64,000 nucleotides of DNA from Spirochaetales bacterium (GCA_016934415.1 JAFGSW010000063.1:20043-84042); one strand, 5' to 3'; shown: positions 19,538 through 55,898, numbered from the stretch's first letter. Program-made: numbers and translations. The notes: generated from the sequence alone by a model not told the origin.

Positions 19538-19702
19538 TAAGGAATCCAGGAAACCCGGAAATATCCGAAAAGGCAATAGCGAAATTTTTGAAATATTGTT
19601 ATTATCCCACCTGATTAATTAAAATTTCTTTCAACGGTAAAATGAATATAACGAATAGCGCCGCACGCTACTTTGCTGCTATTTACTTTCCTGGATTCCT
19701 TA
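19538..19702. repeat. MITE-like element copy A (165 bp), perfect 16-bp terminal inverted repeats
   Basis: Left end TAAGGAATCCAGGAAA at 19538-19553. Right end TTTCCTGGATTCCTTA at 19687-19702, an exact reverse complement. AT-rich interior. Lies between convergent genes. Confidence 0.7.
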
Positions 19703-19727
19703 TTGAATTCATTTCCTTTCCGAATAT

Positions 19728-21719
19728 TCACATTTTCTGAATCGAAAGCTCCAGCGTCATCTCCCAGATCTCGTTCGGCTCCAGGCTGATCCCCCAGGAT
19801 GGGAACAGGCACAGCGCCTGGAATTGCCTCCGGATTTTTCCGTTTTCACGGGCGTGTGAATAGACGCTGTGGTTGAACAGCGAGCAGGGTTTGGCGGACG
19901 TCAACTCGAGCAGGACGTTATTGAGTTTGTCCTCGACGGTTATTTTCCGCACATTGGCGCGCTCGCCCGCGGCGGCGTCTATTTCGCCGGGAGTCTTTTT
20001 CGACGAATCGAAGAGCTTCAGATTTTCCTTGAGCGCCGAGAGTAATGCCAGATTTATCTCGGTGCCGAATTCGACGGCGAATTTCTTTTCGCCCGTGTTG
20101 CGGATCACATAATCGGTCACGACCGTGTTCTTTCTGAACGAGTACCGTTTTTCCAATTCGACAAGCGTTTTTTCCCGTCGGCCGTCGAGGCACCCCCCGT
20201 AGAAGAACGCCATTTGACGTTGTTCGCGCTTCAATTCCTTGAGTTGATATTCGGCCCCCGGGCAGGCGCAGACGTCGGCGATACGATCGCTCAAGGTGGA
20301 GGCCCCGCCGTCTTTCTTGAAATGAAAAAAATGCTCGACGAATATCTTGCGCGGATATCCGTCGAACGAATCGGTTCCGTCGCGGTGATAATACTCCCTG
20401 ATCCGGGACAGTGTATCTCCGTAGTTCCAGCAGACCGGGATGTAATCGAGCTCGAAGATCATGCCGTTCTGGCGGTGGATGTAGACGTTCATCTCATTCG
20501 ATTGGTAAAGGATTTCCGGCTCCCCGTCGAAGTCGAAATCCGCCGTAATAATCGACGACAGGAAAGATCCTTTGACCCGCGTGTATTTTTCCGCCGTGAT
20601 GAAGCTTTTATAGATTTCCTTCCGCAGGGCATTGTCGTAGATGCCCAAATGGCGGCCGTGCCAATATCCGTAATGGCATTGGCCGCGCCACAACTCCTCG
20701 AGCGCGCTTTTTTTCCTCGATTTGTCGCCGCGCATCTGGTGTACCGTCAGGTGGGTATACATCATCTTGGCGTAGAGCAGATTGCTCTCCCGGTATTTGT
20801 TGAAGATTTGCTTGAAATTCGACGCGGCCGGCGCGATCGGCCGGCGTGTTTTTATTCGCCGGTAGGGAGGGCGCAAGGCGGCGCGGGAGACGGCATCGGA
20901 ATAGGTACCGGAAAAATAAATCTTGCGGGTGACGTTCCGCCCCTTCAGATATTCCTGCGGTACGACGGGAATGATGGTGTCCCGATGATCGTTCAGCCGG
21001 GCATGGAACTCTTTGAGCCAATTAATATTTTTGCGTCCCTTGGGGAGCACGAAGCGCTTGGTATAACATTCGCCGTCGATGAGAATCGAAATCACGCGCT
21101 CCCCGTCCTCCGACGCCTGCCGCCGCAGGAAGCGAATCACCTCGCGCGGACTTTTTCGGAAAAGGAGGTCTTTGAGTCTGAGGGTGAGCGGAAATATCGT
21201 AATATTCTTGCCGTGTTCCTCGGTCAAGTGCGGATAAAAGAGGTCGTCGTCGGAGCGCCGAACGGAGAGGAAAGCGCTCTCGTTGAGAAAGGTGTATTCG
21301 ATTCCGCAGCTTTTCAGGGTGTTGGGAAGCGTCGCCTCCCACACCTGTTCCGGCAGCCACAGCCCCCGCGGCCGTTTGCCGAAATGCGAGCGCAGGTAGG
21401 TCGTGCAGAGCTCGATCTGTCCGATTTTATCGAGGAGCGGAACGAGCGGCAGGATGGGGTCGTAAAAACCCCCGCCGATAAGCTCCACCTGTTTTCTCTT
21501 CATCATTTCATCGAGAAGGTTCAAGTATTCGGGATGATTTTTTTCGAGGAATTCAAGGACGATTCCCGAATAATGGAGCACGACGGGCAGCCGTTCAATC
21601 TCGTAGAGCGTGCTTAAGAAATGCTTATAGGTATCCTGATAAACGGCCTCGAAATCGTGGTCGCTGTAACCGAGCGGCGCGTGCCAATGCACCCCGAAAA
21701 TGAGGTGTATCGTTTTCAT
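19728..21719 (-). CDS. Glycoside hydrolase family 57 (alpha-glucan-acting enzyme)
   Basis: N-terminus MKTIHLIFGVHWHAPLGY... with the GH57 HWHxP motif. 663 aa. Confidence 0.85.
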   Translation of the reverse strand: MKTIHLIFGVHWHAPLGYSDHDFEAVYQDTYKHFLSTLYEIERLPVVLHYSGIVLEFLEKNHPEYLNLLDEMMKRKQVELIGGGFYDPILPLVPLLDKIGQIELCTTYLRSHFGKRPRGLWLPEQVWEATLPNTLKSCGIEYTFLNESAFLSVRRSDDDLFYPHLTEEHGKNITIFPLTLRLKDLLFRKSPREVIRFLRRQASEDGERVISILIDGECYTKRFVLPKGRKNINWLKEFHARLNDHRDTIIPVVPQEYLKGRNVTRKIYFSGTYSDAVSRAALRPPYRRIKTRRPIAPAASNFKQIFNKYRESNLLYAKMMYTHLTVHQMRGDKSRKKSALEELWRGQCHYGYWHGRHLGIYDNALRKEIYKSFITAEKYTRVKGSFLSSIITADFDFDGEPEILYQSNEMNVYIHRQNGMIFELDYIPVCWNYGDTLSRIREYYHRDGTDSFDGYPRKIFVEHFFHFKKDGGASTLSDRIADVCACPGAEYQLKELKREQRQMAFFYGGCLDGRREKTLVELEKRYSFRKNTVVTDYVIRNTGEKKFAVEFGTEINLALLSALKENLKLFDSSKKTPGEIDAAAGERANVRKITVEDKLNNVLLELTSAKPCSLFNHSVYSHARENGKIRRQFQALCLFPSWGISLEPNEIWEMTLELSIQKM

Positions 21720-21880
21720 CGGATATTCCCTCCGCGTACCGTATGGCGGTTTTTTACAACGGCCGACACAAAAACCCCCATCTGAACTCGGAGAATGAAT
21801 AATCGCCCGTTTATTTCATTATGCGCGAAACGCCTATTGTACACCCGCCAACTCGGACAACGCAATAGCTTTTTGTAAAA

Positions 21881-21908
21881 GTTGAAAAAAACCCCGGCCG
21901 CGGTGCGT
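21881..21908 (-). terminator. Probable rho-independent terminator after rnfA
   Basis: On the minus strand: GC-rich CACCGCGGCCGGGG followed by TTTTTTT. Confidence 0.45.
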
Positions 21909-21946
21909 CATGAAGCTGAGACGTAGTCATCGATTCCTTTTCCTTA

Positions 21947-22537
21947 TCACCCGAAGATGTGCGAGAGAAGGGCGACGTCGAGCGCGACGAATCCCAGGGA
22001 GATGAGTCCGGCGGTGATGAAGGCGATCGGCGCCCCGCGCAGGGCCCGGGGAACGTTTTCCAGATCGAGTCGCTCGCGGATGCTCGACATAAGCAGCACA
22101 GCGAGAAGGAATCCGAGTCCCGAGGCAAAGCCCGCCAGCGTTCCCTCGGCGGGAGAAAAATCGTTTTTCAGGCTCATGAAGACCGTCCCCAGGACTGCGC
22201 AGTTGGCGCTGACGGCCGGAATGGAAGCGCCCAAGGAAAGGCGAAGCGCGGGCCAGAAGCGGCGCACGGCGCGTTCCGTCGCGAAAAGAAATCCCGTCAC
22301 CATGAGCACGAAACACATGATCCTGAAGCTCGAGAGCACGGGACCGACAAGGAGGTAACGCCCCACGACCTGGGAGACGAGCGTCGAGCAGGTCATGACG
22401 AAGACGACGGCGCACGCCGAACCGATCGCCGAGCCGGTTTTTTTCGGGGGATGCAACATCGGGCACCATCCCAGGCACTGGATGAAAACAATGTTTCCGG
22501 TAAAGGCGAAGGTGATGATGATGCTGAAAACGCTCAT
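21947..22537 (-). CDS. rnfA: Rnf electron-transport complex subunit A
   Basis: 196 aa polytopic protein, MSVFSIIITFAFTGNIVFIQCLGWCP..., collinear with E. coli RnfA. ATGA overlap with rnfE. Confidence 0.9.
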   Translation of the reverse strand: MSVFSIIITFAFTGNIVFIQCLGWCPMLHPPKKTGSAIGSACAVVFVMTCSTLVSQVVGRYLLVGPVLSSFRIMCFVLMVTGFLFATERAVRRFWPALRLSLGASIPAVSANCAVLGTVFMSLKNDFSPAEGTLAGFASGLGFLLAVLLMSSIRERLDLENVPRALRGAPIAFITAGLISLGFVALDVALLSHIFG

Positions 22538-23226
22538 GGCCCAGTCCTCCCCTCCGCCTCGCCTTCGGTCTTCCCTTCCCCTTCATCGTCTGATGTCCTG
22601 CGCGCGGCTTTCCTCCTGTTTCCGACGGCACGAACGACATTGAAAAGTCCCATGAGAAGGCCGACGGTCAAGAAAGCCCCCACCGGTCCCGCGATGACCG
22701 CCGCCGGAGAGTCCGCCAGTCCCGGTAGTGCGATCAGCCCGTATCCTGAGGCAGGGAAAAAAGTGATCGTTCCCGATCCGATGAGTTCCCGGAAGAATGC
22801 GATCAGTCCCAGGGCCAGGGTGAAGCCTCCGCCCATGCCGAGGGCGTCCGCCACCGTCCGTCCCGGCGCGTGTGTGAAGGCGAAGGTCCCGGCGCGACCG
22901 AGAATGAGGCAGTTGACGGCGATGAGCGGCACGTAAATGCCGAGCCGCGAGGAGAGAACGGGCGCGGTGGCCTTGAGAAGCTGGTCGGTCGCGGTCGTGA
23001 GGGCGGTGAGCATGATGAGGACCGCCGGTATACGCAAATTGGCGGGGATGAAATTCCTGAGGAGGGAAACGGACAAGCCCATGCAAAGGAGCGCTCCCGT
23101 AACACACGCGCCCAACACGACGGCATTGACGAATTGAACCGTGACGGCCAGGGCCGGGCACAAGCCGATAAGGACGACGAAGACCGGATTCCGAGTGAAG
23201 AGGCCCCGGGAAAAATCCTGCAACAT
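22534..23226 (-). CDS. rnfE: Rnf complex subunit E
   Basis: Internal start MLQDFSRGLFTRNPVFVVLIGLCPALAVT preceded by GGAGG. The ORF-track N-terminal extension is arginine-rich and probably spurious. Confidence 0.85.
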   Translation of the reverse strand: MLQDFSRGLFTRNPVFVVLIGLCPALAVTVQFVNAVVLGACVTGALLCMGLSVSLLRNFIPANLRIPAVLIMLTALTTATDQLLKATAPVLSSRLGIYVPLIAVNCLILGRAGTFAFTHAPGRTVADALGMGGGFTLALGLIAFFRELIGSGTITFFPASGYGLIALPGLADSPAAVIAGPVGAFLTVGLLMGLFNVVRAVGNRRKAARRTSDDEGEGKTEGEAEGRTGP

Positions 23227-23978
23227 TAGAAACCTCCCATCCGAGCCGCGAAGCGTGAGCCCTCGCGCAAAGCGAGCCCCAACCCCCTGAAAGTCACCGT
23301 CGCTCCGGTGACGGCGTCGGCGCCTGCCCCGGTGAGGCTTTCCCGCGTCACAGGGACTTCCCTCCCCTTTGCGCCGGCAAAGAGACCGAGCAACCGCACG
23401 GCTTTCGCGCGTTCGCGCCACGGCCCGCGGCCGGCTTCTTCGGCCAGCACCGCATTCCTCACGACGCCGTCCCTTCCGAAATACGCCAGCAGCTTCATCC
23501 CTCCTCCGAAACCGCGGACGCTTAATTCGAGCACGAATCCGGTGAGTGAGCCGGAACTTTCCACCGGATAGTAGGCGCGCACCGTCCCTTCGTTCCTGTA
23601 TCCTATCGAAGAAACAAGGAGGGACAAAGCGGTGCGGTCGCTCTCAGGGAGGCCCTGCTTGAGTCCGACGGTATCGTCCGGGAGGATCTCGTAGCAGGCT
23701 GAGATCCTGCGCCGTGCTTCGTCATCGGGACAAGACGCCAGGATGCGCTCGGCGAAGCCGGTGCGGCTCATGGTGAGAGGAAAAGCCGCATATCGCTCGC
23801 CCGGCGCAAGTCCCCCCGCCGCCGCCCTTAAGAGTTCCTTCTCTCCCCGGGCCAGGCGGTCTTCGATCACCGGCCCCGTCGCAAGTCCGACCGTCACGAT
23901 CACGGCCGCAGCGGCCACGGCGACGACGCCCAACCGCCAAAACGGACTGATCAAATTGCGTAAATCGGCTCTGTTCAT
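23226..23978 (-). CDS. rnfG: Rnf complex subunit G (FMN-binding)
   Basis: This is the C-terminal 250 aa of the 661-aa track ORF, starting MNRADLRNLISPFWRLGVVAV (transmembrane anchor). FMN-attachment motif DAVTGATVT. ATGA overlap with the rnfD stop. Confidence 0.8.
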   Translation of the reverse strand: MNRADLRNLISPFWRLGVVAVAAAAVIVTVGLATGPVIEDRLARGEKELLRAAAGGLAPGERYAAFPLTMSRTGFAERILASCPDDEARRRISACYEILPDDTVGLKQGLPESDRTALSLLVSSIGYRNEGTVRAYYPVESSGSLTGFVLELSVRGFGGGMKLLAYFGRDGVVRNAVLAEEAGRGPWRERAKAVRLLGLFAGAKGREVPVTRESLTGAGADAVTGATVTFRGLGLALREGSRFAARMGGF

Positions 23979-25126
23979 GTCGTCTTCTCCCGGGCGATCA
24001 CGGTCCGTTTCGGCCTCAGAAACCGGTCGATGAGAGGGACGAACATGTTCATGACGATGATCGCCACCGACGCCCCTTCCGGCAAAATGCCGGCGGCGCG
24101 GATCAGGAAGGCGATGAGTCCGACGCCGGCACCAAATACTATTTTCCCCGGGCGGGTGAGAGGTCCCGAAACGTAATCGGTCGCAATAAAGAACGCGCAG
24201 AAGACGATTCCTCCCGAAAAAAGGTGGAAGAGAACGTCGCCTTGGAAAAGGCCCGTCGCGAAGGGAACGCCCCCGAACACCCAGGTGAGAAGCGCGAACG
24301 TCCCCAGCAGCGCCGCAGGGATTTCCCAGGAAATGATCTTCCGCGCCAAAAGCACGGCCGCGCCCACCAGCAGCAGAAAAACGGAAATCTCGCCGATAGA
24401 CCCCGCCGTGTTCCCGAAAAAAAGGTCGAAGTACCCCGGCCTCACGTTCACGCCGAAAAGACCGCCGAGCCATTTGCTCAACTGGCCGTCGAAAGCGGTT
24501 ACCGGGTAATGATGGACGGCCATAAGCGCGGCGGGGCCCCCGAGCGAGCGCAAGGCGGACGCCGCCGCCTCCTGAGAAGCGGCGCCCGCGCCGATCGACG
24601 ACACGGTCGTTTTCACCACGCTTAAGGGTGTGGCGCCGGAGAGGGCGTCGAAGGACGGTCCGGCCCCTTCCGCGATCGTGGCCGGCGCGATCCAGGCGCT
24701 CATGGCCGCCGGAAAGGAAAGCAGCGCGAATACCCGACCCGCCATGGCGGGATTCATCCAGTTGGCGCCCAATCCGCCCGAGGCGTGCTTGACGACGGCC
24801 ACGGCGAACACTGAAGCGCAGAGTGGAACGTAGACGGGCGCGGCCGGCGGCAGGCTCATGCCGATCACGAGGCCGGTAAGGAAGGCGGATCCGTCCCCGA
24901 CCGTCACTTTTCCCCTGATTGCGTTCGCCGCGAGCTCCGTGAGAACGGCGCCCGCCAGGGCCGTCGCCACCACGAGGATCGCGCGCGCGCCGAAAACGGC
25001 CAGGCCCCAGGCGAGCGCGGGGACCAGGCACGCGGAGACCGTCCACATGACGGTCCGGATGCCGGCACCTTCGGCGATATACGGGGCGGAGGCGCTCGTG
25101 ATGGACCGTTTTTCGGATTTCATCAT
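23975..25126 (-). CDS. rnfD: Rnf complex subunit D
   Basis: NqrB/RnfD-type polytopic protein. Start at MMKSEKRSIT overlapping the rnfC stop. Confidence 0.85.
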   Translation of the reverse strand: MMKSEKRSITSASAPYIAEGAGIRTVMWTVSACLVPALAWGLAVFGARAILVVATALAGAVLTELAANAIRGKVTVGDGSAFLTGLVIGMSLPPAAPVYVPLCASVFAVAVVKHASGGLGANWMNPAMAGRVFALLSFPAAMSAWIAPATIAEGAGPSFDALSGATPLSVVKTTVSSIGAGAASQEAAASALRSLGGPAALMAVHHYPVTAFDGQLSKWLGGLFGVNVRPGYFDLFFGNTAGSIGEISVFLLLVGAAVLLARKIISWEIPAALLGTFALLTWVFGGVPFATGLFQGDVLFHLFSGGIVFCAFFIATDYVSGPLTRPGKIVFGAGVGLIAFLIRAAGILPEGASVAIIVMNMFVPLIDRFLRPKRTVIAREKTT

Positions 25127-28211: not shown

Positions 28212-28224
28212 GTCCCTCTATCGA

Positions 28225-28689
28225 TTACAGCATGCAGAATGCCAAAGCGATGAAAAATCCGAGCACCGCTCCCACCCCCACTTCAGAGAGGCTGTGGCCG
28301 TTGATTTCCTTCACGGGTTTTATGGAAAGACGCTTCTCCTTCTTCAAAACGGCGATGAGTCTGTTCAGGGTGTGCGCCTGGAGCCCGGCGGACCGCCGTA
28401 CGCCGAGGGCGTCGCGGATGACGAGAAGCGCGTAAAAAAAGGTGACGATAAAAAGGGGATCGCCGATGCCCACCCTGAACCCGATTGAGGTGACGAGCGC
28501 CGCCACCACCGCTGAATGGCTGCTCGGCATTCCGCCCGTGGTCCAGAAAATGTACTTGAGTATTTTCAAGGCGCTCCGCGGTTTATTCTTGGTGATTTCG
28601 ATGATCGATTTCATCACCTGAGCGATGAACCAGCTAAACACGGTCGCCAGGAATATCGGACTCTTCAATAACGCATTGATATGATCCAT
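28225..28689 (-). CDS. Divergent PAP2-superfamily membrane protein (YuiD/DUF212-like)
   Basis: Internal start MDHINALLKSPIF...; motifs GGMPSSHSAVVAAL and IRDALGVRR...LN. The 266-aa track ORF is an upstream extension with no good start context. Confidence 0.65.
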   Translation of the reverse strand: MDHINALLKSPIFLATVFSWFIAQVMKSIIEITKNKPRSALKILKYIFWTTGGMPSSHSAVVAALVTSIGFRVGIGDPLFIVTFFYALLVIRDALGVRRSAGLQAHTLNRLIAVLKKEKRLSIKPVKEINGHSLSEVGVGAVLGFFIALAFCML

Positions 28690-35029: not shown

Positions 35030-36340
35030 GTGAAATCACCTATCGAACCGAAACTCCTCAAGGGCTTCCGCGATTTCCTCCCCGAAAGTGAGATCGTGCG
35101 AAAATCCATGACGAGGAAATTGGAAACCGTCTTCGAGCAGTTCGGATTCGTCCCCATCGATACTCCGGCGATCGAATACGCCGAGATACTGCTCGGCAAG
35201 AGCGGCGGCGAAACGGAAAAGCAGATCTATTCCTGGAGAGATCAGGGGGGACGCCGCGTGGCGCTCCGCTTCGACCTGACTGTTCCATTCGCCAGGTTCC
35301 TGGCCCAGCACCGGCCCCGCCTTGTTTTCCCCTTCAAACGCTACCACATCGCGAAAGTGTGGCGTGGAGAAAATCCCCAGGCCGGCCGCTATCGTGAATT
35401 CATGCAATGCGATTTCGACATCGTCGGCGCGGATTCCGTCTCCGCCGACGCCGAAATCCTGCTTGTCGTCTGCCGCAGCTTCAAGTCGCTCCGCATCGAA
35501 GATTTCAAGATTCACGTTTCCCACCGCGGGGCGCTTAATGATTTTCTCTCTTCACTCGGCATTGCCGACCGTTCGGCCGACATCCTGCGTCTCGTGGATA
35601 AATCGAGAAAAATCGGGCCTGAGAAGACCTCCTCCGAACTCGCCGCTCTCATCGGTCCCGAAAAAACGGATTCGATCCTCGATTTTATCTCATTCGTCGA
35701 TTCAAATGAACTGGCTCTTCAAAAAATGGCCGGCATCCTCGGAGAAGACAATTCCCACGTCGGACGGCTCAGGGACGTGTACGCCTGTTTCCGAGAATTG
35801 GGTATGGCTCACTACCTCGTCTTCGATCCTTCCATCACCCGCGGCTTGGATTATTATACCGCTCTCGTGTTCGAGACCTTCGTCGCCGGCGCCGAGGGAA
35901 TGGGCTCTGTGTGCAGCGGCGGCCGGTATGACAACCTCGTCTCCGTGTATTCGAAAGAGAAGCTCTCCGGAATCGGCGGATCGGTGGGGATCGACCGGCT
36001 GCTTGCCGTGATCGAGGAACTCGGCGAGCTCCCCTCCTGGAAGGGGAAGACGCAGATCGTCATCCCCGTCGTTGACGAGGACCTTGCTCGCTATTACCAC
36101 AAGCTGGCCGAAATGCTGAGGAGCGAGGGCTTCAATGTGGAAGTGTTCCATGAAAAACTCAAGCTGGCCGCGCAATTCACGCTGGCCGAGAAAAAAGGCA
36201 TACCCTGCGCGGTGATCGTCGGCGGCCGGGAACGGGAACGCAATGTCGTCCAGGTCAGGGATTTCGCCACCCGTTCCAATTTCGAGAATCTCTCCGTACC
36301 GGAAGCCATCGTCAAGCTTAAGGGTATCCTGCAGGTGTGA
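35030..36340 (+). CDS. hisS: Histidyl-tRNA synthetase
   Basis: GTG start with AGAGG ribosome-binding site. Class II aaRS motifs (..LKGFRDFLPE.., ..RYHIAKVWRGENPQAGRYREFMQCDFD..). Confidence 0.9.
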   Translation: MKSPIEPKLLKGFRDFLPESEIVRKSMTRKLETVFEQFGFVPIDTPAIEYAEILLGKSGGETEKQIYSWRDQGGRRVALRFDLTVPFARFLAQHRPRLVFPFKRYHIAKVWRGENPQAGRYREFMQCDFDIVGADSVSADAEILLVVCRSFKSLRIEDFKIHVSHRGALNDFLSSLGIADRSADILRLVDKSRKIGPEKTSSELAALIGPEKTDSILDFISFVDSNELALQKMAGILGEDNSHVGRLRDVYACFRELGMAHYLVFDPSITRGLDYYTALVFETFVAGAEGMGSVCSGGRYDNLVSVYSKEKLSGIGGSVGIDRLLAVIEELGELPSWKGKTQIVIPVVDEDLARYYHKLAEMLRSEGFNVEVFHEKLKLAAQFTLAEKKGIPCAVIVGGRERERNVVQVRDFATRSNFENLSVPEAIVKLKGILQV

Positions 36341-36642
36341 TCGTCATGTTACGTGCCGCGTCCGGCCCCCGTGAAGAAGCCTTCACCATCGCCGTCAAGG
36401 TGATTCCCTCGGCGCCCGGTAACCGTTTCGCCGGATACCAGGGAAAGGAACTGGTGGTGAAAATCGCCGCCCCGCCCGAGAAAGGCAAGGCGAACAAGGA
36501 GTTGATCGCCTTTTTTTCGAAATCGCTCGGCATCTCCAAAAGCGGCGTCGCATTGCTTCGCGGCGAAACGTCCCACCACAAGCTTCTGAGCCTTCCATTA
36601 TCAAGCCGGGAGGCCCTGGAACGCATCCTCTCTCCCGAATGA
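36337..36642 (+). CDS. DUF167/YggU-family small protein
   Basis: ...IPSAPGNRFAGYQGKELVVKIAAPPEKGKANKELIAFFSKSLGISKSGVALLRGETSHHKL matches the DUF167 pattern. Overlaps the hisS stop. Confidence 0.7.
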   Translation: MIVMLRAASGPREEAFTIAVKVIPSAPGNRFAGYQGKELVVKIAAPPEKGKANKELIAFFSKSLGISKSGVALLRGETSHHKLLSLPLSSREALERILSPE

Positions 36643-36660
36643 TGCGCTTGAGATAATTCG

Positions 36661-36786
36661 ATAAGGAACCCAGGAAACCAGGCAAAGAATCCTGAGGGAA
36701 AAGAATGAAACATGACGCTGCATATATCTGAGACCGGTTTGTTTTCATATTTTTTGTTTCCTTTCTTGGTTTCCCGGCTTCCTTAT
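36661..36786. repeat. MITE-like element copy B (126 bp)
   Basis: Left ATAAGGAACCCAGGAAACCAGG. Right CTTGGTTTCCCGGCTTCCTTAT, an imperfect reverse complement. The interior contains GAGGGAAAAGAATGAAAC, related to copies E and F. Confidence 0.6.
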
Positions 36787-37161
36787 AGATTCTTCCGAAC
36801 TGAATTCCAAAAAAGGGGGTGGTAAACCGGCAGGCTGATTGACAAACGGATATCCCAAAGTTATAGTAAAGTACTGGATTCGATCGTTTTGAAACGGCGC
36901 CGGAAATCCGGCGAGGCATTTCCCGTTACGGCGATTTTCTTTTTCATCGGAAAAGGATCCTCTGAAAACTCCATGACCTTCGGGTTCTTGAGTCGTCGAA
37001 GGATCCCGCGCCGGGGCAATACGCCCCTTTTATGAAGGAACGAGCGCGTCCCAGGCGGCCCGTGATGGCTCCTGAATCGGGAAAGAATACCCTTAAAGAC
37101 GACAGTTTTTTGGGGACCCTCAAATCATCAACCCCTTTCGGGGGGGACAAAGGAGTCCAGT

Positions 37162-39240: not shown

Positions 39241-39310
39241 TTCCGGCTCCGCCGGAAATTAAGCGACATGAACAAGCCGTAAGAAAATGGATTGAGTGCC
39301 TATTCAAAAA

Positions 39311-39345
39311 GAGGCCGCCGGTTCCGCCGGCGGTCTCTTTTTTTG
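39311..39345. terminator. Bidirectional rho-independent terminator between the EF-G gene (+) and hypE (-)
   Basis: GAGGCCGCCGG-ttcc-GCCGGCGGTCTC flanked by AAAAAG on the left and TTTTTTT on the right. Confidence 0.75.
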
Positions 39346-39354
39346 ATTCTATCT

Positions 39355-40377
39355 TCAGCAGATGCGCGGCAGCATGTCCGCAACGAGCATGTCGACAATG
39401 CGCGTTCCGCCCGCCTTTGTATTCAAATACACCCGGCTTAAAGGATCGTCGGTGACTGTGCCGATGATGGCCGCGTCCTTGGATGCTGGCCGTGAACCCA
39501 AGTGCGCGAGGATGTCTTCGGCCGTATTTTCCTCACAGACGAGGATGAACTTTCCTTCGTTCGCGAGGTACAACGGATCGTAACCGGTCAATTCGCACAA
39601 TGCCAGCACCTCGTCGCGCACGGGCAGCGCCGATTCGTCGATTTCAATCGAACATGTGGAGGATCGCGCCAACTCAACCAACGTCGTAGCCAATCCGCCG
39701 CGGGTGGGATCGCGCATGAAGCGTACGGCCGGCGGCGGGAACCGTTCGAGGGTTGCGAGAACGACCCCGGACAGGGGCCGGCAATCGCTCTCGATCTCAA
39801 ATGAGACGGGAAAATCGCCCCTGGCCTTCATGATGGCGGCGGCGTGGTCGCCGAGCGTCCCGCTCACGATCACCCGGTCTCCGGGCCGGACGGCGAGAGG
39901 CGAAAGCGCGGCTCTGAATTCGCACGTGCCGATCCCGCTCGTGTTGACGAACAGGCCGTCGGCTTTTCCCCGCGGCACGACCTTGGTGTCCCCCGTGACG
40001 ATCGCCACGCCGGCCTCGTCCGCCGCGATCTTCATCGAGCGGACGATCGCAGCCATATCTTTGAGGGGAAATCCGTCCTCGATGACGAAGGCGGCGCTCA
40101 AGTACCTGGGCCGGGCGCCGGCGACGGCGAGGTCATTGACCGTGCCCGACACGGCGAGCCGTCCGATGTCTCCTCCCGGGAAAAACAGCGGCTGCACCAC
40201 GTACGAATCGGTCGTGAAGGCCAATCCGTATTCGTGCGCGGGCAGAATGGCGCTGTCAAGCAAAGCCTCGAGGAAACGATTGTCGAGCGCCGGCAGAAAC
40301 GTCTTTTCGATGAGATCATGCATGGCCTTCCCGCCGTTGCCGTGGGCGAGGGTGATCGTCTTGCCTTTGGATGTCAT
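39355..40377 (-). CDS. hypE: Hydrogenase maturation protein HypE
   Basis: N-terminus MTSKGKTITLAHGNGGKAMHDLIEK. AIR-synthase-like fold. C-terminus ...PRIC with the conserved terminal cysteine. Confidence 0.9.
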   Translation of the reverse strand: MTSKGKTITLAHGNGGKAMHDLIEKTFLPALDNRFLEALLDSAILPAHEYGLAFTTDSYVVQPLFFPGGDIGRLAVSGTVNDLAVAGARPRYLSAAFVIEDGFPLKDMAAIVRSMKIAADEAGVAIVTGDTKVVPRGKADGLFVNTSGIGTCEFRAALSPLAVRPGDRVIVSGTLGDHAAAIMKARGDFPVSFEIESDCRPLSGVVLATLERFPPPAVRFMRDPTRGGLATTLVELARSSTCSIEIDESALPVRDEVLALCELTGYDPLYLANEGKFILVCEENTAEDILAHLGSRPASKDAAIIGTVTDDPLSRVYLNTKAGGTRIVDMLVADMLPRIC

Positions 40378-40406
40378 TTATCTTTTCACCTTCAGTTAAT
40401 AATTCT

Positions 40407-40623
40407 AAAAGGAAACCAGGAAAAATTACAGTGAAAATAAACACTCCTCATCATGACCCAACGAACCATATTTTCAGGAAGCTCAGAGCAGAAATAATGA
40501 AAATAAATTATCTACAAAATGGTCAACTGAATTTTAACATAAATAGTTATTGTTTTTTCAAATTTTTCTGAACGTCTTTTCGTTTTCATATTTTTCTTTT
40601 TTCCTGGATTCCTGGTTTCCTTA
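40407..40623. repeat. MITE-like element copy C (217 bp)
   Basis: Left AAAAGGAAACCAGGAAAAA. Right TTTTCCTGGATTCCTGGTTTCCTTAT. AT-rich interior that shares GTTTTCATATTTTT with copy B. Confidence 0.65.
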
Positions 40624-40642
40624 TTATTTCCTTTTGAGAGAA

Positions 40643-41563
40643 TTACGTCCCCTCGATCACCACCAGACCGCCCAGGCGGCGCGGATCGAGGTTCACTGTT
40701 TTAACGAGTTTGGCCATGGCCTCTCTGGGAAAGGACGCATCTCGAACGAATTCACTTCCAATCTGCCAAAAGGCTTTTTCCTGTTCCAGCCAGCGAACGA
40801 CGGCGCAGAAAACCATTTTCTTCCCGATTCCGCCGACAGCGTCGACTTGGACGCTGATGATCCCGCCCTGCTCCAGGCTGTCGCGACTCAAGAGAAGCAA
40901 TTTTGCGCCCTCCGTGGATATGTCGATCAGGTATCCATCGATTGAATTATTCACGACCGCCTTGGTGAAAATGCTGTGCCGTTGGAGCCGCCGTAGGTAC
41001 ATTCCGGACTCGACGGGTTTCACTTCCGCCTCGTTCCCGACTTTCGTCATTCTCTTGGCGGCGGTAATTCGCGTGCCGGCCACGCTCCCCCCGCCCTTCC
41101 ACGCGCACTCTTTTCCTTCCCGGTCGATGAAGACGAGATGAAAGGCGTCGAGGGCGATTTTGGCCGAAAGGAGGCCGATTCCGAACCGGTTGAAGCCGTG
41201 GCGTTCGCGATATTCCTGAAATTTAAGACTCGTAAAGTCCGGTTTTTTCGATTCGTCGTTGATGTCGATCGGAAGGGTTGAGAGATCGAATCCGCCCCCG
41301 AAATCCGTCACGATGATCTTCAGGAAATTTCCGGAAACCATGAGGTCGACCGATACTTCCTTGTCGATCTTCCGCTCATGGAGGGCGCGCAGGGAATTGG
41401 TCACGAGCTCGGTAAGGGCGTACCGCAGGATGATATTATCGGATTCCTTGACCGGGAAATCGATGAGCTCGAGTATTTTAAAAAAATCCGAGCCGTTCAG
41501 TTTGGGCGAAAAATGAATGAACAATTCCGTGTAGCAGTTGCCCTTGTAGACGATGTAGTTCAT
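40643..41563 (-). CDS. Fusion protein: GHKL/HATPase_c (anti-sigma-factor/serine-kinase-like) N-domain plus PilZ c-di-GMP-binding C-domain
   Basis: N-domain ...ILRYALTELVTNSLRALHERK...IIVTDFGGGFD. C-domain RRLQRHSIFTKAVVNNSIDGYLIDISTEGAKLLL (PilZ RxxxR ... D/NxSxxG). GGGAG ribosome-binding site. Sits between hypD and hypE. Confidence 0.65.
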   Translation of the reverse strand: MNYIVYKGNCYTELFIHFSPKLNGSDFFKILELIDFPVKESDNIILRYALTELVTNSLRALHERKIDKEVSVDLMVSGNFLKIIVTDFGGGFDLSTLPIDINDESKKPDFTSLKFQEYRERHGFNRFGIGLLSAKIALDAFHLVFIDREGKECAWKGGGSVAGTRITAAKRMTKVGNEAEVKPVESGMYLRRLQRHSIFTKAVVNNSIDGYLIDISTEGAKLLLLSRDSLEQGGIISVQVDAVGGIGKKMVFCAVVRWLEQEKAFWQIGSEFVRDASFPREAMAKLVKTVNLDPRRLGGLVVIEGT

Positions 41564-46891: not shown

Positions 46892-47034
46892 CCCGTAAAA
46901 AACAGCCACAGAGGCACTGAGGACACAGAGAGGAAAAGAAAATGAGGAAAGAAAATTTCCAATAAATTCTCCTTCCTTTCTTTTTATCATTTTCTTTTTG
47001 TCTTCTCTGTGCTCTCTGTGTCTCCGTGGCTGTC
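46892..47034. repeat. Long imperfect inverted-repeat hairpin element (copy E) between hydA and the maturation protease
   Basis: Arms ACAGCCACAGAGGCACTGAGGACACAGAGAGGAAAAGAAAATGAGGAAAG and CTTTCCTTTCTTTTTATCATTTTCTTTTTGTCTTCTCTGTGCTCTCTGTGTCTCCGTGGCTGT, centred on AATTTCCAATAAATTCT. Confidence 0.55.
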
Positions 47035-47085
47035 CTTTTCTTCCCCGCTAGGTGAAGTCACGTCGCGCGCAAAGCCGACGAAAAA

Positions 47086-48381: not shown

Positions 48382-48392
48382 CGGATCGCTCC

Positions 48393-49963: not shown

Positions 49964-49966
49964 GTG

Positions 49967-50983: not shown

Positions 50984-51351
50984 TTCTCACCTCCCCGTCC
51001 GGCTGTCGTAACAGCGCAGTATCGGCGCGTATTCCATCACAGCCGTCACTGTATGTGCTTTGCGACCGCACCGGCTTAAGACCGCATCGTTTCGCAGAGT
51101 TGTCATCCCTGTCAGGATAAGGCTGTGAAAAAAGCACTGGCTCCTTAAGGGCCGGACGCGCAACCACAAGCTTTATGAAAGTTTTGCCCCACCCGGACCA
51201 GATCGTGTTGCCCGTAATATATACGGATTAATTGAACGTGTCAAATATTCGCGGTTTTCTTGTCACAGTCGGCCTGTCCGTGATAGTGTGTGATCGCTTT
51301 CAATCCGATGGTGCGGCGCGGCCTCGAATAATGCCGCCGAAAGGGGAACGC

Positions 51352-52326
51352 GTGAAAAAAACGCCGGCGATCATTTTTTCCACACTGCTCTTCGTTTCCT
51401 GCAGCGGCGTGGAATCCGAATTTTCTCCCCCGGTGTCCCTGCGTCTGACGATCCGGGCCGGCCTGCCGCCGGTCGCGATCGCGGTCGATGAATTCGCGCG
51501 GCTCGCCGCCGAGCGTTCCCACAAGACGATGACGATCGCCGTCGGCGAGACCCGGCACGCAGCCGACGACCGGAAGGTCGTGAAGAAATTGGCCGCCGGA
51601 GAGATCGACGTCGCCTGTGTCGGCGCTCAAGAGTTAAGCGCGCTCGACGCGGAGTTCGCGGTCCTCACCCTGCCCTTTCTCTTCCGCGGCGACGCCCATT
51701 TCCGCCGCGTCATCAACGGACCCGTCGGCGAAAGTATTCTGAAAGGACTCGATCGCCACGGGCTCACCGGCATAGGTTTTTTCGACCAGGGCGCATTGCA
51801 TTTTTTCAGCCGGGACAAGAAGCTGATCCTGCCCGCCGATTTCAAGAAAACGCGGTTCAGGATCCCCTCGCTGCCCCCGCTGCGCGGCGCAATTGAACGC
51901 CTGGGCGGCTTCGTCGCACCCGTGCCGGGCGAAGAGGCCGCCCAGGCCCTCAAGCTCGGTATTGTCGACGCCGTGGGCGATTTCCCATGGGCCTTCGAGC
52001 GCTACGGTTCCCAAACCGCGGCCATGAGAGTATCGTCTCTCGGCTGCGCCCGCGCGCCTCTCGTGCTCGTCATGAGCGGCGCGGCGGCGAGGAAACTTCC
52101 GTCCGGAGCGATCGAGTTCCTGCGCGCCGCCGCTCGCGACGCCGCGACCGGTCAAAGGGCGTCGGCTCACGGCGATGACGAGTCCGTCGCCGCGCTCGCC
52201 GCCCGGGGAGTCACGGTCGATCGCCCGGTCGATGTTTCGGCATTCGCCGCCCTTATCGGGCCGGTTTATCGGGAACAGCCCGAGGAAGTGCGGAAACTCA
52301 TAAAGGAAATTGATGATATGCGATAA
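51352..52326 (+). CDS. TRAP-type transporter solute-binding lipoprotein (DctP family), orphan
   Basis: GTG start after AAAGGGGAA (alternative ATG at 51331). Lipobox LFVSCSG. DctP-like sequence. No dctQ/dctM adjacent. Confidence 0.7.
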   Translation: MKKTPAIIFSTLLFVSCSGVESEFSPPVSLRLTIRAGLPPVAIAVDEFARLAAERSHKTMTIAVGETRHAADDRKVVKKLAAGEIDVACVGAQELSALDAEFAVLTLPFLFRGDAHFRRVINGPVGESILKGLDRHGLTGIGFFDQGALHFFSRDKKLILPADFKKTRFRIPSLPPLRGAIERLGGFVAPVPGEEAAQALKLGIVDAVGDFPWAFERYGSQTAAMRVSSLGCARAPLVLVMSGAAARKLPSGAIEFLRAAARDAATGQRASAHGDDESVAALAARGVTVDRPVDVSAFAALIGPVYREQPEEVRKLIKEIDDMR

Positions 52327-52334
52327 GTTGGCGT

Positions 52335-52952
52335 TTAATCTTTCCCCCGGATCACGCCCCAGACTTTCGTGAGATCGGCCTCCCGGTACTGCCCCGGGAC
52401 TTTGCGGTTCGAGCCCACATACTCGACCGTGAGCGCGCTCCGCTTGTCGAAATCGATCCATTCCACGAACACGGCGCTGTGGCCGATTTCTCCGTACGGC
52501 AGGTTCCGGTACATGACCCAATCGCCCGGCCGGATGACGCCCGGGTCGGCGAACGGACCGGTTTCGGGCTCCTTGAAGATCGTAACGCGCTTGGCGCCGG
52601 GAAAACCCGCCCGTTTATAGACGGCGTTCACGAAATCCCAGCAGGCGCCGAGCACGATCTTTTTTTCGCCGACCATGGCGGCGGCCGCGGCGAGCACCCG
52701 GGCGCCCGGCGTTTTCTCCTCCGCATGCGCGGCGACGACGGCGGACACTGAATCGACCGAGCCCGTCTCTGCCGGACGCCGAGTTCGCGGGCGGTCTCCG
52801 GTCCTCGGCGCCGCCCGATCGTTCCATTCGCTTGAAGCCAGTCGCGTCGATCGGCTGATCGTAATGATGCAGCCGCTCAAGGGCAGAACACATACGATCG
52901 TCCATATAATCAAATATAATAATGTGCGCAATTTATTATAATAATTTTTCAT
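52335..52952 (-). CDS. Lipoprotein with a putative papain-like (NlpC/P60 or CHAP-like Cys/His) peptidase fold
   Basis: Internal start MKNYYNKLRTLLYLIIWTIVCVLPLSGC. Candidate catalytic Cys in LGACWDFVNAVY and His in GEIGHSAVFVEW. The fold assignment is tentative. Confidence 0.4.
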   Translation of the reverse strand: MKNYYNKLRTLLYLIIWTIVCVLPLSGCIITISRSTRLASSEWNDRAAPRTGDRPRTRRPAETGSVDSVSAVVAAHAEEKTPGARVLAAAAAMVGEKKIVLGACWDFVNAVYKRAGFPGAKRVTIFKEPETGPFADPGVIRPGDWVMYRNLPYGEIGHSAVFVEWIDFDKRSALTVEYVGSNRKVPGQYREADLTKVWGVIRGKD

Positions 52953-53619
52953 CCCGCTCCTCGAAGGTCCGGTAAACGGCTTCATGCGGCCTTCGGCGCA
53001 CGTCGCCGTAGGTGTAATATTCAGCCCGGGCGGTCCACTCACCGCGCGCATTGAATTTCAGATATTTATATTCAATGAAAAAAGCGAGACCGCCGTCGGG
53101 ATTGCGGACGGAAATCGACTCAAGATTGCCGGCATCGTCGTAGGCGTACGTTTTCCTGAAGACGAGGCGACCGTCGGCCCCTCCCTGCCTGGTTTCCTCG
53201 AGACGTCCCGATCGCGAATACTTTTTTTGGTTGACGAAGAGAACGCCGCCGTCCGGCAGGACGGCCGTTTCGGTCTCGAGGTCGCCCTCGCGCTCGAGGG
53301 TCACCGTCCGGCGCAGCGTTCCTTCCGGACCAAAGACGGAAAGGATGCGTTTCCCCTTGCCGTACCGGTAGACCGTTTTTTCAAGGACGTCGCCCTTTCC
53401 CCCCGCGAGCACCTCTTCGGCCGGGCGGCCTTCCCGGTCGAACGTCAGGGTGATGCGTTTGATCGTCTGGCCGACGCCCCACACCCTTTTCTTCGCGTTC
53501 CAGTGGTACACTTTCACCGTGGAGACGATTTTCCCGCGGCCGGAAGCCTCCGCGTAGGCTCCCGCGCAGGCGAGAAAGGCGAAACCGATGAAAATCGCCC
53601 TGTCGATCCGTCTATTCAT
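52936..53619 (-). CDS. Short secreted YD/RHS-repeat-like protein
   Basis: Signal peptide. YD-repeat-like motifs (RLVFRKTYAYDDAGNLESISVRNPDGG, RYGKGKRILSVFGPEG). Confidence 0.5.
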   Translation of the reverse strand: MNRRIDRAIFIGFAFLACAGAYAEASGRGKIVSTVKVYHWNAKKRVWGVGQTIKRITLTFDREGRPAEEVLAGGKGDVLEKTVYRYGKGKRILSVFGPEGTLRRTVTLEREGDLETETAVLPDGGVLFVNQKKYSRSGRLEETRQGGADGRLVFRKTYAYDDAGNLESISVRNPDGGLAFFIEYKYLKFNARGEWTARAEYYTYGDVRRRPHEAVYRTFEERDEKLL

Positions 53620-53700
53620 TCAAGCCGGGCGTTCCTTTACCGCCCTCGTTCATTGTATCGTCTTCTGGCGGGGAATTCCAAAACTGCGCTGTAAATCCAA

Positions 53701-54306
53701 TCAGCCTGCCAGGTAGCCGCGTACCGCCGCCTCGTCGATAAGCCCGCCGGCGAGCTCCCCGAGCTCGGCCGACCCGTCTCCGATCCGGGCTTCGACATTG
53801 GCGCGCACCCGGGCCGCGTCAATTCCGTGCTCCAGCCAGGCTTTGCCCGAGGTGAGAAAATTATGGTAGAGCGGCTGGAAGCGGTCAATCGACTTCGCGA
53901 AGCGCGCGGCGGGAGTGACGCCTTCCTCGAATTCCCTCCAGAGCGAAAGAAGCTCGTCACGCTGGTCGCCGGGGAGGAGCCCGAAGAGCTTTTCGGATGC
54001 CCGCGTCTCTCGTTTTGCCTGGCCCGCGACCGCCCGCTCGTCGTAGATGTAGGTGTCTCCGGCTTCGATCTCCACCACGTCATGGATGAGGAGCATTTTC
54101 ACCACTCTGAAGGGGTCGATGCCGTCCGCGTCCGCGTGCTCGATGAGGAGAATCGCCATCAAGGCGACCTGCCATGAGTGCTCGGCTGAATTTTCGGTTC
54201 GCGACGAATCCAGCAGATAGGTGCGCCTCTTGACGGACTTGAGCTTGTCGAGCTCCCGGATGAACGCGAGTTGTTTTTCGAGCCGTTCGGAAATATCGAT
54301 CGCCAT
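53701..54306 (-). CDS. HD-domain phosphohydrolase (YfbR-like 5'-deoxynucleotidase family)
   Basis: Start MAIDISERLEK. Motifs ENSAEHSWQVALMAILL...LIHDVVEIEAGD (H..HD..D). Confidence 0.75.
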   Translation of the reverse strand: MAIDISERLEKQLAFIRELDKLKSVKRRTYLLDSSRTENSAEHSWQVALMAILLIEHADADGIDPFRVVKMLLIHDVVEIEAGDTYIYDERAVAGQAKRETRASEKLFGLLPGDQRDELLSLWREFEEGVTPAARFAKSIDRFQPLYHNFLTSGKAWLEHGIDAARVRANVEARIGDGSAELGELAGGLIDEAAVRGYLAG

Positions 54307-54384
54307 CGTTTTCGCTCCTCTCGCTGTCAGTATATGACATTCACGCGGCGGGGTAAATCGTGGCGGCACGGGTGTATATATTAC

Positions 54385-54530
54385 TGCAGAAATTCTCAAT
54401 TTTTCATATACCGGACGTCATTCCGAGCGAAGCGAGGAATCTCCCAACAACGAATGGTCCAGATGACTCTTATTGTTAGGGGATTCTTCGGCCTTCGGCC
54501 TCAGAATGACATTTCACATTCCTTATTGAG
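54385..54530. repeat. About 145-bp composite palindrome in the divergent promoter region between the HD hydrolase and MscS genes
   Basis: Outer arms GAAATTCTCAAT / ATTGAGAATTCC. Two inverted inner units GTCATTCCGAGCGAAGCGAGGAATCTCCC and GGGATTCTTCGGCCTTCGGCCTCAGAATGAC. Its right end (ATTCCTTATTGA) resembles the right end of MITE copy A. Confidence 0.5.
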
Positions 54531-54618
54531 AATTCCTGATATCAGTGATTCCCCGGTTTTCACTTACGTGAATGCGTGTTATCATTTCCTACAAATTGCC
54601 GAAAACGGGGGAGATGCG

Positions 54619-55734
54619 ATGTGGCAGGAATTAATCCAAGAGTTTGAAAAGAATTGGCAAGGCTACCTGACATCGGCTGTTGTCATTCTGGCGGCGGCAG
54701 CCGCCGGGTTCATCGCGCAATTCCTGATATCCAGGCTCATCAGGGCGATTTCAAGAAAGAAAACCGATTTCCCCGGCAGTCTCGCGGTCAAGCACCTGCG
54801 CTGGCCTCTGCGCTTCGCCTTGCCCATCGTGTTCATCGCGGCCGCCTCGCCCTTCGTCAAGGCACCCCCATCCATTCAATACGGCGCGGGCATCATCCTC
54901 ACCACGCTCCTCATTGTCGTCTTCGCCTGGACCGCGATAAAGGCCCTTTCCATCGTCGTCGACTGGAGCGAGCGGCGCCTGCGCGGCGGCGGGCGGGAAA
55001 CTCTGCGCGACCGCCGCATCTTCACGCAGGTGCGCATCATCAAGCGCATCGTCGCCACGGTCGTCGTCTTCGTCGCCGCGGCGATCATCCTCCTTCAGTT
55101 CAAGGAAATCTCGAACCTCGGCACCACCCTCCTCGCCTCGGCCGGCGTCATCGGCATCGTCGTCGGTTTCGCCGCCCAGCGCTCGCTGGGCACCTTTTTC
55201 GCCGGTTTCCAAATCGCGCTCACCCAGCCCATCCGCATCGACGACGTGGTGGTGGTGGAGGGCGAATGGGGCACGATCGAGGAGATCACCCTCACCTACG
55301 TCGTCGTCCGCATCTGGGACCTACGCCGACTCATCCTGCCGGTAACGTATTTTCTCGAGAAACCCTTTCAGAACTGGACGCGCACGTCCGCCGCGGTCAT
55401 GGGCACGGTCTTCCTCTACGCCGACTACACCGCTCCCGTCGCCGCCCTCCGGGACAAGCTCAAGGAAGTCGTTACGGCGGATCCCCTCTGGGACAAGAAA
55501 GTCTGCGTGCTCCAGGTGACCGACACGCGCGACCGCACCGTGGAGCTGCGCGCGCTGGTGAGCGCCGCCGATTCGCCCTCGCTCTGGGACCTGCGGTGTC
55601 ACGTGCGCGAGGAGCTCGTACGCTTCCTTACCGAGACTTATCCCCTCTCCCTCCCCCGCTTCCGCGCCGTCCTGGACAAGGAAGACCCGCACGAACCCCG
55701 AAAAACCCGCGGGCCGCTGAAGAAAGATTTATAA
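54619..55734 (+). CDS. Mechanosensitive ion channel (MscS family)
   Basis: ATG at 54619 after GGGGGAG. N-terminal transmembrane helices and an MscS beta-domain region (GFQIALTQPIRIDDVVVVEGEWGTIEEITLTYVVVRIWD). Confidence 0.8.
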   Translation: MWQELIQEFEKNWQGYLTSAVVILAAAAAGFIAQFLISRLIRAISRKKTDFPGSLAVKHLRWPLRFALPIVFIAAASPFVKAPPSIQYGAGIILTTLLIVVFAWTAIKALSIVVDWSERRLRGGGRETLRDRRIFTQVRIIKRIVATVVVFVAAAIILLQFKEISNLGTTLLASAGVIGIVVGFAAQRSLGTFFAGFQIALTQPIRIDDVVVVEGEWGTIEEITLTYVVVRIWDLRRLILPVTYFLEKPFQNWTRTSAAVMGTVFLYADYTAPVAALRDKLKEVVTADPLWDKKVCVLQVTDTRDRTVELRALVSAADSPSLWDLRCHVREELVRFLTETYPLSLPRFRAVLDKEDPHEPRKTRGPLKKDL

Positions 55735-55898
55735 GGAAACCAGGAAGAAAGAATCCAGGTAAAGGAAAGCAAAAATAGAGAGAACGAACCGAAGTTTTCC
55801 TTTTTCGGTTTGTATCTGTTTTTTTACCGCATGGATTTTCCTTCTCTTATTTTTTCTCATCTCTCTTTCCTGCTTTCCTTTCCTCCTGGCTTCCTCAT
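55731..55898. repeat. MITE-like element copy D (168 bp)
   Basis: Left ATAAGGAAACCAGGAAGAAAGAATCCAGG starts at the MscS stop codon. Right CCTGGCTTCCTCAT. Polypurine / polypyrimidine halves. Confidence 0.6.

Follow-up and report, generated by a model that had tools for sequence, protein, structure and literature searches.

Inverted-repeat elements of 8-nt units in a Spirochaetales genome as candidate cargo-less members of a cross-phylum nuclease mini-cassette family

What are the short inverted-repeat segments that recur between the genes of a Spirochaetales bacterium (GCA_016934415.1)? The question was raised by a 64,000-nt stretch of its genome (JAFGSW010000063.1:20043-84042; hereafter the window, with positions counted from its first nucleotide), in which the original prediction, made from the sequence alone, had described four intergenic segments, A to D, and had read them as miniature inverted-repeat transposable elements (MITEs) or as structured RNA genes or terminators specific to this lineage. 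It was confirmed that the four repeats are a real family of terminal-inverted-repeat elements. Their 16-nt terminus was found to be common to at least eight bacterial phyla, and in longer copies elsewhere it bounds a nuclease gene. We suggest, with a probability of roughly 55%, that A–D are cargo-less members of a cross-phylum family of inverted-repeat nuclease mini-cassettes, the arms of which would pair as a stem in the transcript.

Anatomy and folding of the window elements

The window contains 13 matches to AAGGAAWCCAGGAA (at most two mismatches) against 0.92 expected, and none of 100 shuffled sequences reached 13. Twelve of the 13 matches are located inside segments A–D, where they form four inverted pairs in spacers at gene ends. 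The elements, to which no strand was assigned, are as follows.

Copy A: 19530-19710, no strand; arms 19530-19560 (GAAATTTATAAGGAATCCAGGAAACCCGGAA) and 19687-19710 (TTTCCTGGATTCCTTATTGAATTC) with AT-rich filler between them
Copy B: 36658-36789, no strand; arms 36658-36689 and 36758-36789
Copy C: 40397-40626, no strand; arms 40397-40425 and 40598-40626
Copy D: 55724-55905, no strand; arms 55724-55761 and 55867-55905

Each arm is a tandem array of 8-nt units, in which the outermost unit, (A)TAAGGAAN, is followed by one to three [C/G]CAGGAAN units decaying inwards; the right arm of copy C holds two CCAGGAA units and a degenerate ATGAAAAC unit. A single arm is a direct-repeat array and is not self-complementary. 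The two arms are inverted, so each strand reads as a purine-rich arm, filler and a pyrimidine-rich arm, and the purine-rich left and pyrimidine-rich right halves described earlier follow from this arrangement. Between the arms, the window copies contain 94–186 bp of AT-rich filler and no cargo. The 16-nt termini of copy A are perfect, as had been reported. When both strands of A–D were aligned using MAFFT, only the termini were conserved (approximately AATTYATAAGGAAnCCAGGAAACCAGGAAA), with an invariant AAGGAA.CC.GGA in all eight arms, so the termini do align across the copies; the interiors of A, B, C and D could not be aligned with each other on either strand. The interior block that B and C had been said to share (GTTTTCATATTTTT) is indeed present in both, but it is not a true interior: it is the innermost degenerate unit of the right arm and pairs with AAAAGAATGAAAC of the left arm.

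According to a repeat finder, B, C and A are three of the six longest inverted repeats in the window, with arms of 32 nt (81% complementary), 29 nt (76%) and 24 nt (88%), respectively. The predicted folds of A–D all close on the terminal arms and are more stable than dinucleotide-shuffled sequences (z from -3.2 to -6.8), with the exception of the minus strand of copy C (z of -1.7).

Immediately inward of the 8-mer units, both arms often have an A-rich run and then ATGA(A), e.g., AAAAATATGAAAAC. Such sites were found at window positions 36700-36713, 36741-36756, 40583-40598 and 46940-46948 and at about 1525-1540 of locus L196, the orthologue of site D. They resemble a start-codon context on both strands, and the short open reading frames (ORFs) downstream are not conserved between orthologues. 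Short ORFs of the filler, which start with ATGAAA just inside one arm and cross the opposite arm (e.g., MKTKRR... in C and MKTNRS... in B), were treated as incidental, because the peptides are not conserved between B orthologues and the pyrimidine-rich arms are stop-free.

The terminus in other phyla and the nuclease cassette

A scan for ATAAGGAAWCCAGGAA, which covered one genome per species, returned at least 114 stretches from many phyla. Among the 125 exact matches listed, including those of the window, 62 have an inverted partner no more than 1500 nt away, and most of the partner gaps among these listed matches are 11–60 nt, which results in short hairpins such as ATAAGGAATCCAGGAAACCATGAAATCAATTCCTGGATTCCTGGTTTCCTTAT. 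The carriers include Verrucomicrobiota, Planctomycetota (Gemmataceae, Isosphaeraceae and Planctomycetaceae), Chloroflexota, Latescibacterota, Sumerlaeota, Nitrospinota, Syntrophaceae, the UBP2 group and Spirochaetota, the latter including a sister species of the window organism. The elements are thus not specific to this lineage, contrary to the original proposal. Several matches are located on contigs of 0.4–1.8 Mb, so this breadth is not explained by mis-binning. A few viral contigs of IMG/VR contain the hairpins; in one of them (L233), an arm directly precedes a gene of an M15-peptidase-like protein and a complete short hairpin lies behind this gene. A literature search with the exact sequences of the 8-mer units returned nothing or only unrelated primer matches.

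A gene-carrying copy was found at locus L025, where the arms enclose an ORF of 124 aa in the order ATAAGGAATCCAGGAAGGCAGGAAAT, 9 nt, ATG...TGA, 13 nt and TTTCCTGCATTCCTGGCTTCCTTAT. The encoded protein was attributed to the GxxExxY family (TIGR04256, 2e-38) and PDDEXK_3 (PF13366, 5e-37). Five further cassettes (two at L201 and one each at L202, L204 and L205), sampled from independent metagenomes as close homologues of the L025 protein, have arms identical in kind and position. Thus, in six of the six sampled cassettes the gene bounded by the identical termini encodes a GxxExxY PD-(D/E)XK nuclease and not a known transposase. The full-length mini-cassette is ~450 bp long and contains a promoter-less gene of a nuclease of 123–135 aa, with the arms always at the outer boundary.

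The purine-rich arm places Shine-Dalgarno-like AGGA words 6–12 nt before the start codon of the cargo, and the pyrimidine-rich arm follows, or even provides, its stop codon. All unit classes are purine-rich and include a Shine-Dalgarno-like core of 3–5 nt (AAGGA, AGGA, GAGG, AAGG or GGAT); judging by these words, the purine-rich arm plausibly acts as the ribosome-binding region of the promoter-less cargo gene. The cassette directly follows a host gene, and wherever the context was readable (L201, L202, L205, the JGI place of P0187 and L068) the cargo points in the same direction as the gene before it. At L205, the cassette separates the permease gene from the ATPase gene in an operon for an ABC transporter, and a cargo-less CACGAAA-type hairpin follows the ATPase gene.

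Internally deleted cassettes with intact arms were found in Isosphaeraceae (L006, two at L016, L086, L097 and L108); they retain the first 15–35 and the last 15–50 codons. The commonest form is a short hairpin of 50–80 bp. Different GxxExxY subfamilies are paired with different 8-mers: the GxxExxY gene of L068 (46% identical), for instance, lies between arms of the CACAGAT type. The identical termini in so many phyla, the nuclease-bearing longer copies and the internally deleted intermediates together indicate a mobile origin of the family.

The GxxExxY/PDDEXK_3 family includes at least 7,938 clusters at E<=1e-10 (8,000 candidates scored). Its function is listed as unknown, and 'multiple transfers' between divisions have been described (PMC3424549). 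On plasmids, the gene is seldom found (8 of 72,556 records), and it was absent from the GenBank phage set. Searches of the available library by family name and by exact sequence found no literature on hairpin-flanked GxxExxY cassettes or their units.

Under the reading that we prefer, cassettes would insert just behind stop codons and lose the gene by internal deletion, which would leave short hairpins; the window copies would be relics that keep AT-rich filler and arms that are still constrained. In a read-through transcript, pairing of the arms would produce an interrupted stem, at least 22 bp long, by which the spacer is closed off. This stem may be a processing, 3'-end-protecting or insulating structure, with the RNase III-cut intervening sequence (IVS) of 23S rRNA as the model, and both the pairing and the cleavage of the RNA are proposed by analogy with it. 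The nuclease, or another sequence-specific factor, would read the 7-nt words, and the nuclease may also have a role in mobility.

Orthologous sites, pairing of the arms and rival explanations

Sites A–D are all occupied in relatives at 74–88% protein identity. No clean empty site was recovered, and the filled/empty polymorphism that might have been expected of a MITE was not found among these relatives. A sister-species metagenome-assembled genome (MAG), CAZKOS01, is syntenic with positions 13444-21527 of the window. At site A (L030), 38 of 42 positions are identical over the right arm and the adjoining spacer as far as the stop codon, and the remainder of the element falls into a 100-N scaffold gap. 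At site B (L206/L207), the element lies behind the DUF167 gene (74% protein identity), with 26 of 32 identical positions in the left arm and 22 of 27 in the inner right block. At site C (metagenome contig L116, 85% protein identity) the arm on the hypE side is present, and at site D (L196) both arms are kept and the filler is unalignable.

Arm identity was 0.90 for A, 0.81 for B, ~0.67 for C and 0.61–0.68 for D (gapped; 19 of 24 in the left core), and the third-codon identity of the flanking genes was 0.67, 0.58–0.61, 0.70 and 0.81–0.87, respectively. The arms are at least as conserved as synonymous sites at A and B. The identity of the fillers (0.43–0.54) is near random for AT-rich sequence, and they are always less conserved than the arms. 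Since the sites are filled in the sister species, with arms kept and fillers scrambled, the elements are old residents that retain their arms while the filler turns over.

Several details of these sites should be mentioned. In a more distant relative (63% identity), the D spacer holds a CACGAAG-type pyrimidine-rich arm instead. Exact 100-N runs in the sister-species MAG (L030, 1848-1947 and 3234-3333; L083, 1694-1793) are located on or beside AT-rich hairpin spacers, and the elements appear to break short-read assemblies; one such run removes the left half of the copy A orthologue. On the contig of a relative (L208, 790-1036), a long tandem array of 21-nt units (CGGAAACGTCCGGCGTTTTGT and variants) lies directly behind the DUF167 gene, in the place that copy B takes in the window, and inside an ORF of the opposite strand.

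Covariation was analyzed in 55 unique hairpins from all phyla by comparing the left arm with the reverse complement of the right arm. The variable positions left free by the search were scored; the conserved words pair by construction. Complementary bases were found in 16 of the 55 hairpins at position 9 (17.0 expected), in 23 at position 17 (19.1), in 23 at position 18 (20.3) and in 28 at position 21 (30.6), and positions 24–26 were at or below expectation. The 7-nt words are near-invariant across phyla, with free variation at the spacer positions that part them; 7-bp blocks interrupted by mismatches of 1–2 nt would still allow stems to form. The Rfam search gave no window match at the gathering score, and eight related loci matched only eukaryotic miRNA-precursor models below the threshold, i.e., a generic long hairpin. 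No U-tract follows the stems, as the flanks read ATAAA or ATTGAA without T-runs. A terminator scan found none at A–D and a canonical bidirectional intrinsic terminator at 39306-39342, in the EF-G/hypE spacer, with a 17-pair stem flanked by an A-run and a T-run.

A number of these results weigh against the proposed relic cassettes with a transcript stem. No covariation between the arms was detected at the variable positions of the 55 hairpins, which argues against pairing as the chief constraint and for recognition of the words as sequence; base pairing alone is not what keeps the words identical across phyla. Loops of 94–186 nt are long for a processing stem. The D arms are no better conserved than synonymous sites, and gene conversion from other copies could be a source of arm similarity without a host function. 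A tblastn search with three GxxExxY proteins revealed no GxxExxY gene in the 64 kb of the window or in ~35 kb from the sister genome, and no remnant of one in the window, and the putative link of the window copies to the nuclease cargo is by arm identity alone.

The lack of covariation favours sequence read-out and keeps alive the main rival explanation, according to which a sequence-specific protein reads the arms as double-stranded DNA recognition arrays, made up of terminal inverted repeats and subterminal 8-bp iterations. The PD-(D/E)XK nuclease that the cassette itself encodes, or else a host factor, would be the reader; the ability to form a hairpin would be a by-product of the inverted arrangement, and the window copies would persist as landing sites, either inert or re-usable. 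The near-invariant words, the arms as the constant boundary of the cassettes, the change of the 8-mer with the GxxExxY subfamily and the turnover of fillers between retained arms all agree with it. However, the nuclease is a 125-aa Cas4/RecB-like core without known transposase activity, no target-site duplication or insertion polymorphism among sister species was found, and the failure to find a nuclease gene in the available sequence of this genome counts here as well. We consider this explanation doubtful. A classic MITE, i.e., a non-autonomous element now mobilised in trans by a transposase encoded elsewhere in the genome, would also have terminal inverted repeats, a small size, an intergenic position and several copies per 64 kb. 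It is nevertheless improbable: the interiors are unrelated, the sites are filled in all the relatives mentioned, and the termini, present in at least eight phyla, bracket a nuclease gene and not a transposase gene in the sampled cassettes. In addition, no constant direct repeat that could be a target-site duplication was found at the four window copies and ~60 hairpins elsewhere, where the flanks often extend the palindrome (GATTT ahead of ATAAGG...CCTTAT and AAATC behind it). No transposase, RAYT, GxxExxY or S23p gene is present among the ~55 window genes, and no Y1/IS200-like gene was found in the window. Of the original MITE proposal, the inverted-repeat family of mobile origin is retained and the classic, currently active MITE is not.

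Even less can be said for lineage-specific bidirectional intrinsic terminators or small structured RNA genes, which we regard as very unlikely. The elements occupy convergent or tandem spacers at a distance of 0–67 nt from a stop codon; of the six palindromes of the window (A–D and two related ones described below), three are located between convergent genes and none in divergent spacers; and the folds are more stable than shuffled sequence, all of which would suit such a function. Against it are the missing U-tract, the large loops that are unconserved even between sister species, the lack of arm covariation, the generic sub-threshold Rfam matches and the presence of the motif outside the lineage. 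The textbook terminator at 39306-39342 also indicates that the 8-mer elements are not the organism's sole means of ending transcripts. Across loci, ~57 hairpins were flanked by tandem (34), convergent (15) or divergent (8) genes, a rough indication only, as the counts are from ORF calls and this method mis-called the known cases of window copy B and L196.

Several other functions were considered and rejected. As promoters, the termini do not fit sigma-54 (TGG..N..TGC) or sigma-70 in spacing and hexamers; outward transcription would be antisense to converging genes, and the promoter-like sites found by the scan are located elsewhere. Among the RNA-binding proteins, CsrA recognizes A(N)GGA in loops, Hfq recognizes (ARN)n, and TRAP and Rho rut sites have a periodicity of their own. 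By eye, the 8-nt period fits none of them, and the sister units (CACAGAGG, CACGAAG) do not contain GGA. A Dcm/EcoRII site (CCWGG) fits the CCAGGAA class only.

More tentatively, the 8-mer hairpins and GxxExxY may form one system, similar in its population structure to REPIN-RAYT (see below) but built on another enzyme, and a new class of mobile or selfish elements, with the 23S rRNA IVS as the case that landed in rRNA. Here, the Cas4/RecB-like PD-(D/E)XK nuclease would recognise cognate 7-nt arrays, with CCAGGAA, CACAGAG, CACGAAG and CGGATGA as specificity classes, and would mobilise or maintain the promoter-less cassette and a large population of cargo-less hairpins in many phyla. If so, one of the largest uncharacterised families of small proteins would gain a function, the occurrence of GxxExxY genes as promoter-less singletons behind housekeeping genes would be explained, and a connection would be made between rRNA intervening sequences and hairpin-armed cassettes as a general class. 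Short intergenic palindromes, such as MITEs and repetitive extragenic palindromic sequences (REPs), are usually treated as lineage-specific, whereas here one terminus spans phyla and is tied to GxxExxY/PDDEXK_3. For annotation, it is of practical importance that the stop-free pyrimidine-rich arms produce spurious ORFs, that the elements can give stop codons and Shine-Dalgarno-like words to neighbouring genes, and that short-read assemblies appear to be broken at them, as with the gap in the copy A orthologue.

Known systems, related palindromes and gene neighbourhood

The closest described relative of the cassettes is the 23S rRNA IVS. In Coxiella burnetii, the IVS is a 428-nt selfish element with a stem that RNase III cuts; AGAAGA and three tandem GACAGAT heptamers make up its 5' arm, just before the start of the S23p ORF (PMC4990558). 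Strains differ in the number of repeats, deletions are eroding the ORF, and horizontal acquisition was followed by vertical inheritance (PMC4990558). Like the cassettes, the IVSs of Coxiella and Leptospira, with an S23p (four-helix-bundle) ORF, are small selfish insertions of ~0.4–0.7 kb with stem-forming ends and a small ORF. The likeness holds at the level of the family, with tandem purine-rich arm repeats before a small ORF at L025, L201, L202, L204 and L205; the window copies share only the arms with the IVS. The GACAGAT heptamer is close to the CACAGAT units beside the L068 nuclease gene. Unlike the IVS, which is located in rRNA helices, all window elements lie between protein-coding genes, and the window contains no rRNA; the unit is an 8-mer (CCAGGAAN), and the cargo of the family is a PD-(D/E)XK nuclease and not S23p.

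In population structure, the closest analogue is the system of REPs, their hairpin-forming doublets (REPINs) and REP-associated tyrosine transposases (RAYTs), with many empty doublets and few enzyme-bearing copies. In both, short intergenic inverted doublets with hairpin potential are numerous and a copy with one enzyme gene between its repeats is rarer; in both, the elements lie downstream of genes and have long been inherited vertically at orthologous sites. REPs are defined by a GTAG or CGTC tag at an end of an imperfect palindrome of 20–40 bp (PMC3733652). The arms described here begin with (A)TAAGGAA, do not have this tag and are direct 8-mer arrays, not palindromic units. While RAYT is an HUH/Y1 transposase, the gene between the arms at other loci encodes a minimal PD-(D/E)XK nuclease (PF13366), and while REPs are lineage-specific, the arm sequence is common across phyla. 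MITEs are similar in their terminal inverted repeats, small size, intergenic position and series of internal-deletion derivatives of a longer gene-carrying element; unlike in MITEs, no target-site duplication, conserved interior, known transposase or insertion polymorphism was found. The short tandem heptamer repeats (STRR type) of cyanobacteria are intergenic arrays of 7–8-nt units. The arms differ from them in being short (2–4 units), always in an inverted pair and tied to a cassette.

Two further palindromes of the window share this type of build.

Palindrome E: 46897-47038, no strand; CACAGAGG units, in the spacer between the NiFe-hydrogenase large-subunit gene and hycI
Palindrome F: 10469-10657, no strand; GCGGATGA-type arm units, in the convergent spacer between 9266-10462 (plus strand) and 10665-11603 (minus strand)

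Palindrome E has the same build as A–D, with a purine-rich left arm, a pyrimidine-rich right arm and 8-nt periodicity; its 58-nt arms are 72% complementary, and the z values of the fold are -10.7 and -10.3 on the two strands. The first ATG listed for hycI (46990) falls within E and the HycI domain begins at residue 59; the true start of hycI is probably downstream of the E arm. Palindrome F (z of -7.5 and -6.6; AT-rich filler with 33% G+C) is located between the genes of a cyclic nucleotide (cNMP)-binding protein and a signal peptidase.

Loci that mix unit classes were also found. At L200 (2080-2260), 4 kb left of the window on the same genome, an element of the CACGGAT type has degenerate CCAGGAA units towards its interior. 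In two Planctomycetota loci (L014 and L052), CACAGAG-type units are located outside the CCAGGAA units on both sides, and in a Chloroflexia locus (L113) GCGGAT-type units are outside them. The sister genome contains a CACGAAG-type hairpin (L083). These loci (L014, L052, L113 and L083) indicate that the three unit types of the window belong to one modular repertoire. In Latescibacterota, a palindrome with another unit class (GAGACGTTAGACGTAAGACGGGAGAGGAT; L114, 5413-5687) encloses two copies of a ~60-nt motif (CTTGCCGGAGGCATA...GAACCAATCGGGCA). On an Armatimonadota contig (L003, 1700-1840), a G+C-rich stretch with several strong local hairpins comes after a CACAGAG-type array and a CCAGGAA arm; no matching right arm was found and Rfam at E<=1 gave nothing there. 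This stretch may represent another type of cargo, for example a structured RNA.

The window holds housekeeping genes, among them those of an opp-type ABC transporter, class II ribonucleotide reductase, Rnf, GH57, hisS, EF-G, hypA/D/E/F, NiFe hydrogenase and dnaE. As originally described, every copy lies between genes. Copy A is in the convergent spacer between 18243-19472 (plus strand) and the GH57 gene 19728-21719 (minus strand), 67 and 27 nt from the stop codons. Copy B begins 21 nt past the stop codon of the DUF167 gene 36337-36642 (plus strand), the last of the hisS operon, and is followed by a promoter-like TTGACA-17-TATAGT site (36839-36867, sigma-70-like) and the EF-G gene. Copy C is located between two minus-strand genes, 21 nt past the PilZ/HATPase gene 40643-41563, and its left arm ends 20 nt from the start codon of hypE (39355-40377). 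Copy D is in the convergent spacer between an mscS-like gene and dnaE (55912-59049, minus strand), with its right terminus 13 nt from the dnaE stop codon; the stop codon of the mscS-like gene is the TAA within the left terminus of D (55732-55734). According to ORF calls alone, the TAA of ATAAGG is also the stop of the upstream ORF at L053 (2519-2521), L096 (2167-2169) and L107 (6088-6090). Such use of the terminal ATAAGG suggests insertion at, or selection for, the extreme ends of genes.

A distinct kind of gene-end hairpin was also observed in the window. A DUF4342 gene and the gene of class II ribonucleotide reductase converge on a spacer that has at each end a perfect 18-bp G+C-rich hairpin without a T-tract (12454-12492 and 12651-12693), different from the 8-mer elements.

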